This document shows, in pieces, positions 49,966-50,799 of a stretch of 64,000 nt of DNA. The stretch's first letter is position 1, and every line of letters begins with the position of its first letter. Below the pieces are notes generated by a model. That model saw only the letters and a program-made list of their open reading frames with translations. It was not told the DNA's origin and searched no databases. Made by a program: the position numbers and the translations under genes. This DNA comes from Escherichia phage MIZ4, in sequence record OR167180; one strand, written 5' to 3'.

Positions 49966-50799
49966 TCATTCTCCGTCAGTTCGTTTCAGATATTCCAATG
50001 CCGCATATAATCTCTGAGGATCGTCTTTGAACATCCCTAATCCGGCATTACATTTTCCACAAAGAACACCTCTTATCTTACCAGTCTTATGATTATGGTC
50101 AAGATGTTTCCACTTTTGGCGTTTTCTCACGCCGCATCGTTCATTTATGAATTTTACACCGCATATCTCGCAATTGTCAACTCTGCCTAAAATTTCTAAC
50201 GCTTCTCTTTTTGATATTTTTATACCATTTTCGGCATGATGATATGGCCTATCTAGTTCTCGCTCTCGCTTCTCAAACAATCGACACTCATCAGAACAAT
50301 ACTTTTGAGATACGTTTATTGCAACAAATGGTTTACCACATTTAGCGCATTCTCGTTCAATCTTTATGTTTTGTGCTTGGTCCAACGATGCGCAACGAGA
50401 ACAGCAAAATTTATGATATCCTTTAGAGTATGTATGATAATTTACAGGATTTGGGCATCTTGCACATTTAACTATTCCTGTTATTCCGTGGCGCAATCTA
50501 TAAACAGCCTCGTTATATGGTTGTTGATTTCTGAGACCTCCATTACAGAACTTAAACTCATTCCTTATAATCTGAAATTCCGCAGGATACAATTTTTCCA
50601 TTTCTGGAATTTTATTTTCTTTAAAAAGATTTGAGTTTAGTCTATTTCCGCTTTTCGCCTCCAGAACATCAACAATAAACTTTTTGATGTTCACTTTTTC
50701 TCTCCAATACATAACATAACCATAACTTACTGCAACCGCCACAAAGACGGCTGCAACAATCATATTAAAAATTGAGTGATTGTCAAGTATATGACTCAT
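49966..50799 (-). CDS. membrane-anchored protein with zinc ribbons and endonuclease VII-like His-Cys box
   Basis: ORF track; N-terminal TM; C-terminal [27 protein letters not shown] resembles T4 endo VII catalytic motif. Confidence 0.55.
   Translation of the reverse strand: [277 protein letters not shown]

Follow-up and report, generated by a model that had tools for sequence, protein, structure and literature searches.

A minus-strand open reading frame (ORF) of 277 amino acids (aa), lying in a 64,000-nucleotide (nt) stretch of DNA from Escherichia phage MIZ4 (sequence record OR167180; the whole stretch is called the window here), had been described in a first-pass annotation as a membrane-anchored, endonuclease VII-like protein. 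We conclude, with a probability of about 0.8, that this ORF is a lineage-specific fusion of a hydrophobic mini-ORF of 36 codons with the 242-codon gene of a free-standing homing endonuclease that carries an Endo VII motif of the DHHRN family. Membrane anchoring as a property of the gene family did not survive comparison with relatives, since the anchor comes from a separate mini-ORF that a 2-base deletion has joined to the nuclease. Over the window region the sequence matches Escherichia phage MIZ5 (OR167181.1; Straboviridae, an RB49-like Krischvirus) at 100% identity, and window positions equal MIZ5 genome positions minus 32,000. The ORF itself is identical to MIZ5 CDS0121, annotated as 'hypothetical protein', and it stands in a minus-strand gene order of dda, two small ORFs, dexA, 39.2, the 277-aa ORF, gene 39, small ORFs and rIIA. 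The ORF and its parts map as follows.

49966–50799, minus strand: the 277-aa ORF with an ATG start (from the ORF list), read as an in-frame fusion of mini-ORF and endonuclease gene.
50695–50799, minus strand: mini-ORF body, codons 1–35 (ORF006.1 of RB49 and Phi1; phrog_25974), the source of the 'transmembrane helix', placed by the phrog_25974 match and Kyte–Doolittle hydropathy.
50695–50705, minus strand: GGAGAG-AAAAA tract 5′ of the GTG, Shine–Dalgarno-like and polymorphic in length (alignments).
49966–50694, minus strand: the native endonuclease gene, 242 codons plus stop, with a GTG start at window residue V36 (a 729-base-pair (bp) coding sequence in 11 relatives).

The hydrophobic N terminus reported in the first-pass annotation is present in the ORF: residues 13–31 reach a Kyte–Doolittle 19-residue mean of 2.02, the maximum past residue 36 being 0.84, and the segment is followed by basic residues (R, K, K, K). 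An AlphaFold2 model draws a single helix over residues 2–35; because its alignment was shallow (5 sequences), the model was used for the C-terminal domain only. Residues 1–30 match phrog_25974, a separate phage family of 36 aa (E = 1e-21), and the corresponding mini-ORF is a stand-alone 111-bp coding sequence in RB49, Phi1, G37-3, G2248, MIZ6, FL04, PHB13 and E26. In the three nuclease-less Krischvirus phages examined for it (RB49, Phi1 and G37-3), the mini-ORF sits directly between 39.2 and gene 39 and overlaps both. Among the nuclease-carrying phages in GenBank, 11 of 12 keep the mini-ORF and the 242-aa nuclease ORF separate. The carriers compared at the locus were G2248, MIZ6, JEP8, FL04, Skers, PHB13, JK32 and E26; in G2248, MIZ6, FL04, PHB13 and E26 the mini-ORF, which ends in YVMYWREKK, overlaps the 729-bp nuclease coding sequence through a GTGA, and the DNA of JEP8 at this junction is the same as in the G2248-type carriers.

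The start of the nuclease gene is equally consistent across the family. Homologues at 98%, 75% (P0002), 60% (P0004) and 40–45% identity (VR7, VR26 and RZ) all begin at window residue 36 with the motif M/V-[ND]-[IL]-K-[KQ]-F-I, and both P0002 and P0004 are exactly 242 aa long. The length of 242 codons recurs exactly in four lineages, and a dN/dS (ratio of non-synonymous to synonymous substitution rates) of about 0.08 against E26 and JEP8 points to purifying selection on the nuclease ORF. The 90% protein cluster that holds the 277-aa ORF has 32 members; the other 14 listed, found on approximately 93 contigs, are all 242 aa, and just two NCBI records hold the exact 277-aa sequence, namely that of MIZ5 and one of 165,509 nt that bears the label Krischvirus RB49. 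In the homologues the transmembrane segment therefore lies outside the nuclease ORF, which is not what a natively membrane-anchored nuclease would look like.

The difference between the separate and the fused arrangement is a single dinucleotide. The tract of the window reads (AG)2 where that of most relatives reads (AG)3, so that in alignments the junction is TGGAGAGAGAAAAAGTGAAC in the relatives and TGGAGAGAAAAAGTGAAC in the window, and the MIZ5 fusion arises by loss of one AG from GGAGAGAGAAAAAGTG. This loss removes the stop codon of the mini-ORF and places the mini-ORF in frame with the GTG of the nuclease; the hydrophobic segment and the nuclease are continuous because of this 2-bp deletion, which is specific to this phage lineage. 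Three tract-length alleles were found among 12 near-identical phages: the full-length tract with separate ORFs and the GTGA overlap; a −1 allele lacking an A, in Skers and JK32, which extends the mini-ORF to 43 aa in the other frame; and the −2 allele lacking AG, which gives the fusion in MIZ5. The sister isolates MIZ2, MIZ3 and MIZ6 carry the full-length tract. The frame of the nuclease relative to the mini-ORF is accordingly −1 in the G2248 type, +1 in Skers, JK32 and the short Logan contig L018, and zero in MIZ5; in L017, a 169-kb metagenomic T4-like contig, the two ORFs do not overlap and the mini-ORF ends at a TAA stop. Programmed −1 frameshifting at GAG-AAA-AAG-TGA was considered as a conserved mechanism and rejected, because the frame relation varies among alleles and lineages. 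T4 gp39.1 was likewise rejected as a counterpart of the mini-ORF, being unrelated and not hydrophobic.

The C-terminal part of the ORF carries the catalytic domain, preceded by two further cysteine clusters.

49984–50178, minus strand: ββα-Me/Endo VII-motif catalytic domain, residues 208–272 (PF02945, Hpy99I, Foldseek and the homologue alignment).
50392–50466, minus strand: zinc-ribbon-like Cys4 site 1 (C112, C115, C132 and C136), presumed to bind DNA (cysteines invariant in the homologue alignment).
50284–50349, minus strand: zinc-ribbon-like Cys4 site 2 (C151, C154, C168 and C172; homologue alignment).

Pfam PF02945 (Endonuclease_7) matches residues 208–272 with E = 6.5e-16 and 58.4 bits, against a cut-off of 23.6 bits. 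The solved relatives found by sequence are Hpy99I, the best match (E = 1.3e-9, residues 197–274), and T4 endonuclease VII (E = 0.0057), and Hpy99I is also the top Foldseek match of the nuclease model (E = 7e-5, probability 1.00), whose predicted local distance difference test (pLDDT) values are mostly 74–88 in the C-terminal half, with an overall mean of 64. The catalytic motif is C210-x2-C213, D234-H235-N236-H237, R243, C247-x2-C250 and N251, which is the full DHHRN set as defined, with its residue roles, in PMC6083498. Its columns are invariant in our eight-sequence alignment, save C210, which falls in a deleted part of P0003; the members considered included P0002, P0004, P0003, VR7, VR26 and RZ. 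The motif is at the C terminus, at residues 208–272 of 277 or 173–237 of the native 242. The His-Cys domain proposed in the first-pass annotation thus holds, and the profile searches place its C-terminal motif in a ββα-Me nuclease fold of the endonuclease VII/HNH kind.

The CxxC zinc-ribbon pairs that it described are present as well, and form three Cys4 sets: C112/C115 with C132 (C133)/C136, C151/C154 with C168/C172, and C210/C213 with C247/C250. Their cysteines are kept in all homologues except the internally deleted P0003. Site 1 gave only sub-threshold Pfam matches, to Zn_ribbon_recom and YacG (E = 0.025), and site 2 a sub-threshold match to the DUF2116 'treble clef'; in tblastn, 'endonuclease VII' nucleases of Felixounavirus-like and T7-like phages match from Cys4 site 2 onwards (approximately residues 141–273 or 122–271). 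The YacG-like similarity covers residues 110–140 of the ORF, which stands beside a gyrase-B-like topoisomerase gene, and we considered a gyrase-inhibitor zinc finger of the YacG type as a functional link to the topoisomerase. The candidate was dropped because all matches are sub-threshold (Pfam as above; Foldseek 4tma_K, E = 0.86 over 35 columns), and the resemblance of zinc ribbon 1 to YacG is most likely generic treble-clef similarity. One homologue is altered: P0003, a 753-nt ENA contig, encodes a 180-aa derivative in which an internal deletion joins ...KIERE to CGVKFINER..., so that zinc ribbon 2 is lost and the zinc site of the catalytic domain lacks its first cysteine. It looks like a copy in decay, as is expected of decaying copies of such nucleases.

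Presence of the nuclease gene is sporadic, and its position is fixed. The gene is found in 12 of 58 Krischvirus records and absent from the remaining 46, and homologues directly upstream of gene 39 occur also in the Gaprivervirus phages VR7, VR26 and RZ and in the contigs L017 and L018. Three features describe the sequence on its gene 39 side.

48136–49959, minus strand: gene 39 (60+39), the unsplit large subunit of topoisomerase II, 607 aa (Pfam, PHROG and T4 alignment).
49279–50709, minus strand: mosaic block relative to RB49-type phages, comprising the endonuclease cassette and the first 681 nt of gene 39 (alignments).
49279–49959, minus strand: diverged gene 39 5′ haplotype linked to the endonuclease (bimodal distribution in GenBank phages).

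The adjoining gene 39 was said in the first-pass annotation to cover what T4 splits into 39 and 60, and the alignments agree: T4 gp39 residues 4–475 align with residues 2–474 of the 607-aa protein at 56% identity, and T4 gp60 residues 31–158 with residues 476–605 at 55%. The protein contains the Pfam domains HATPase_c, DNA_gyraseB, Toprim and TOPRIM_C and matches phrog_543 at E = 1e-248. Compared with RB49 and Phi1, the mosaic block is 65–88% identical, whereas its flanks are 97–100% identical; on the left it has an exact boundary, after GTTATG at 50710, and the last dense mismatch is at nt 681 of gene 39 (window 49279). Correspondingly, the N-terminal 235 aa of the gene 39 protein are 82% identical to RB49 and residues 236–500 (265 aa) are 99.6% identical. 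The nuclease-linked haplotype spans approximately 680 nt and is diverged by about 22%. Across GenBank phages this 5′ segment is bimodal, with 13 records at 92.8% identity or more, approximately 46 Krischvirus records at 77–78.4% and none between; the 13 are the 12 nuclease carriers and G37-3. Divergence is greatest in the first 50–100 nt or so of gene 39, which include the codons of the LKRPxMYIGS ATPase motif and hold many synonymous differences between haplotypes, and this segment is a plausible candidate for the target and immunity region. Sporadic presence at a fixed site together with a diverged flank, both seen in these genomes, is the population signature that would be expected of a free-standing homing endonuclease, and the diverged 5′ haplotype may be a co-converted target region, a cleavage-resistant one, or both.

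A donor of this haplotype was sought. Gaprivervirus was rejected, as its gene 39 is no closer to the haplotype (62%) than to the RB49 type (62–63%), and the phage collection held no donor at 80–92% identity. The gene 39 of L018 is 78% identical to the diverged haplotype and 74% to RB49, and that of L017 67% and 63%, respectively. G37-3 has no nuclease gene and an RB49-type mini-ORF end, yet it carries the diverged gene 39 haplotype at 97–98% identity to the window, the switch falling within the first 8 nt or so of gene 39 (positions ~1953–1965 of its locus, L007). To judge from this arrangement, G37-3 could be a recombinant or represent a resistant allele without the nuclease.

These observations allow us to propose how the locus might have come about and how the nuclease might act. 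The mini-ORF lies between 39.2 and gene 39 in Krischvirus with and without the nuclease, and the nuclease gene, which roughly one in five sequenced Krischvirus phages carries, would be an insertion separating the mini-ORF from gene 39; in MIZ5, loss of AG in the (AG)3-A5 tract would then have fused the two. Translation of the nuclease is expected to begin at its own GTG, which a GGAG Shine–Dalgarno sequence precedes, and its expression, by analogy with the free-standing endonucleases of T4, would probably be low and coupled to that of the mini-ORF. Because the GGAG-N7-GTG region is intact in MIZ5, the soluble 242-aa protein should still be producible there. The enzyme would bind DNA through its N-terminal region and the two Cys4 zinc ribbons, and its ββα-Me site (D234, H235, H237, R243, N251 and the structural zinc) would nick or cut the nuclease-less allele in a mixed infection, presumably at or near the 5′ end of gene 39. 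Recombinational (double-strand-break) repair could then copy the nuclease gene and the flanking gene 39 sequence into the cut genome, and the carrier's own diverged 5′ haplotype is presumed to resist cleavage. A promoter belonging to the cassette was looked for, and sigma-70-like matches were not enriched (11 seen, 7.6 ± 3.0 expected).

Other readings of the fusion itself turn on how the 2-bp difference arose and whether it matters. The deletion could have entered the MIZ5 record through faulty sequencing or assembly, in which case the phage itself would have separate ORFs as its relatives do; the difference lies within a low-complexity (AG)n-A5 tract, the sister isolates MIZ2, MIZ3 and MIZ6 are full length there, and the two records that hold the fused protein have nearby accessions and similar sizes (165,508 and 165,509 nt), suggesting one batch and one pipeline. 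A 2-bp loss is, however, not the usual homopolymer error, the same sequence stands in two deposited genomes, and the −1 allele shared by Skers (USA) and JK32 (Ireland) argues for real slippage at the tract, so we regard a record error as unlikely, if still a chance to be reckoned with. At the other end, the fusion could be a functional novelty with a new role, in which a single-pass anchor, N-terminus out and C-terminus in, would tether the nuclease to the membrane, its nuclease domain in the cytoplasm, perhaps to act at membrane-attached replication complexes or on incoming DNA. The ORF is intact and in frame, the exact protein is found in two genome records, the hydropathy is of transmembrane grade, and the basic residues after the hydrophobic segment are consistent with a cytoplasmic C-terminal part. 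This reading is nonetheless improbable: the fusion is confined to one lineage, while the 14 other listed cluster members and all distant homologues are unfused; it results from slippage by 2 bp in a microsatellite for which a −1 allele was found as well; the internal GGAG-N7-GTG start has been kept, so a soluble enzyme is still expected; and there is no sign of selection for the fused form. More speculatively still, the (AG)3-A5 tract might be a slippage-prone switch among coupled soluble, decoupled and, in MIZ5, truly membrane-tethered expression of the nuclease. The three tract alleles invite this idea, which we rate a long shot; if it were true, the activity of a homing endonuclease would be tuned or re-localised by tract length.

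The nature of the nuclease can also be read differently. Several GenBank records label it 'endonuclease VII', and the Pfam Endonuclease_7 match could be taken to mean that it is the recombination endonuclease VII of the phage, a Holliday-junction resolvase and packaging nuclease of the gp49 type. Only about 31–38 residues align, however (residues 230–260 with T4 gp49, and 38 residues with the gp49 of MIZ5), rather than the full length; the motif stands at the C terminus, its position in the endonuclease clade, whereas resolvases have it at the N terminus; the gene is missing from 46 of 58 Krischvirus records; and MIZ5 has a 157-aa gp49 orthologue elsewhere (genome positions 117947–118420, outside the window) that aligns with T4 gp49 over its full length at 45% identity (E = 5e-51), and G2248 likewise has an orthologue. 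We find this identity hardly credible, and of the endonuclease VII-like label in the first-pass annotation the nuclease domain is thus retained and the role of the phage's own endonuclease VII is not. Somewhat less remote, if doubtful, is a domesticated or competitive nuclease that excludes co-infecting relatives through the gene 39 region or acts in a restriction-like way, homing being a by-product. Strong purifying selection and the kinship with a restriction enzyme, Hpy99I, its closest solved relative, would suit such a role, and among T-even phages marker exclusion is a known effect of homing endonucleases (PMC2988022). Against it, no methyltransferase gene lies next to the nuclease, which is flanked by 39.2, the mini-ORF and gene 39, and the patchy distribution and linked diverged flank are traces of a homing element, although competitive and homing roles are not mutually exclusive.

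Several points weigh against the fusion of a mini-ORF with a homing endonuclease gene that we favour. The diverged haplotype of G37-3, which occurs there without the nuclease, means that linkage alone is no proof of co-conversion, and the target site of the nuclease has been placed solely by the position of the mosaic block. The literature yielded no published cleavage, homing or expression data on the nuclease or its close homologues, nor anything relevant on MIZ phages or a Krischvirus homing endonuclease, and the structural model of the nuclease is only moderate by its mean pLDDT. The fused form, present as it is in two genome records, may be a real, viable allele with a membrane-tethered product. 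Lastly, the mini-ORF is a putative coding gene, and the same stretch forms a strong RNA hairpin.

This hairpin has 14 pairs (TTGTTGCAGCCGTC/GGCGGTTGCAGTAA), lies within the mini-ORF at 50727–50759 on the minus strand and coincides with the Val/Ala-rich codons of the 'transmembrane' segment. Folding of the surrounding 116 nt gives −31.9 kcal/mol (z = −2.8). In L017, the corresponding region retains a similar hydrophobic peptide, but it lacks a clear start codon, its fold is not significant (z = −1.1) and the hairpin is not clearly conserved; a search of Rfam found no match at E ≤ 1 across 48000–52500. An RNA structure upstream of gene 39 might have given rise to the hydrophobic peptide as a by-product, or one sequence might have both roles.

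Elsewhere in the neighbourhood, the gene on the other side of the mini-ORF is the following.

50796–50969, minus strand: gene 39.2, an FmdB-like zinc ribbon (Zn_ribbon_8, E = 1.6e-11; annotated in MIZ5, RB49 and Phi1).

Its stop codon overlaps the start of the mini-ORF (ATGA). Called mechanically, the 39.2 ORF has 84 aa from an ATG at 51050 (50796–51050, minus strand), reaching into the 3′ end of dexA. In every record the annotated protein has 57 aa (50796–50969), and the short start is in keeping with the Zn_ribbon_8 match, which begins at residue 28 of the 84-aa form. Another small presence/absence polymorphism lies nearby: a 177-bp ORF (Phi1 ORF009.1), between the two small ORFs downstream of dexA, is present in Phi1, G37-3 and Skers (L003 3060–3236, L007 3149–3325 and L009 3887–4063) and absent from the window (site ~51883–51886), RB49, G2248 and MIZ6. 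Gene 39 is annotated as 1770 nt in G2248, MIZ6 and FL04 (L002, L005 and L008, 137–1906), which puts its start 54 nt past the ATG of the 1824-nt gene annotated in MIZ5, RB49 and Phi1; as the longer form includes the conserved MSEF...LKRPSMYIGS N terminus, the short calls look like mis-annotated start codons.

What had appeared as an odd 'membrane-anchored nuclease' is thus best explained as a 2-bp insertion/deletion fusion of neighbouring genes, and comparison with close relatives ought to precede the interpretation of odd domain combinations. The gene is most likely an ordinary homing endonuclease gene with a lineage-specific fusion artefact or mutation. Its wider value is that Krischvirus offers a clean natural series, with and without a predicted DHHRN free-standing homing endonuclease beside gene 39, set in a mosaic block of approximately 1.4 kb. 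It also brings a second endonuclease family, unrelated to MobA, into association with the T4-type gene for the topoisomerase large subunit, which makes at least two such families.

One of the closest known systems is VR7 gp6 (VR7ORF006c), which has been proposed as a free-standing homing endonuclease of the DHHRN family (Fang et al. 2018, PMC6083498), a family defined around F-CphI of cyanophage S-PM2 (Fang et al. 2018, PMC6083498). VR7 gp6 and its counterparts in VR26 and RZ are 40–45% identical over residues 28–274 and share with the Krischvirus nuclease the start motif, the three Cys4 sites, the DHHRN residues and the site upstream of an unsplit gene 39. They differ in belonging to another genus, Gaprivervirus, in having no fusion and in their upstream neighbour, which is 39.1 or, in RZ, another ORF, in place of the mini-ORF; unlike that case, the Krischvirus nuclease is polymorphic for presence and absence, so that its mobility becomes visible. 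F-CphI, compared by description, has the same C-terminal Cx2C...DH(D/N)H...R...Cx2C-N motif and is free-standing in a T4-like phage beside an essential or conserved gene, whereas in the Krischvirus nuclease the N-terminal region spans ~170 aa and contains two extra zinc ribbons, and the gene is associated with gene 39. Within the Endo VII-motif clades, endonucleases carry the motif at the C terminus and resolvases at the N terminus (PMC6083498). T4 endonuclease VII (gp49) accordingly shares the His-Cys/ββα-Me core and the structural zinc site and differs by its N-terminal motif, C-terminal dimerisation domain and function as a junction resolvase. The ββα-Me type II restriction endonuclease Hpy99I (PDB 3fc3) is the nearest solved relative by sequence and fold, but it is bacterial and paired with a methylase, whereas the Krischvirus nuclease belongs to a lytic phage, has a different N-terminal region and has no methyltransferase among its neighbours 39.2, the mini-ORF, gene 39 and dexA. 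In T4, free-standing endonuclease genes as a rule lack a promoter and form cassettes overlapping the ORF upstream of them (PMC2988022). T4 MobA resembles the Krischvirus gene in being free-standing, in its association with the same host gene (39/60), in its GUG start and in the overlapped or remodelled ends of flanking ORFs; it differs in being a classical HNH enzyme that splits the gene into 39 and 60, the Krischvirus cassette lying upstream of an intact gene 39. Kinship with MobA, which the position at gene 39 might suggest, was rejected, as tblastn against T4 positions 1–9500 (rIIA to dda) gave no match to mobA and its best hit, elsewhere, had E = 0.46. By these sequence comparisons, the Krischvirus gene is a new, uncharacterised predicted member of the DHHRN family, of a kind that is already known.

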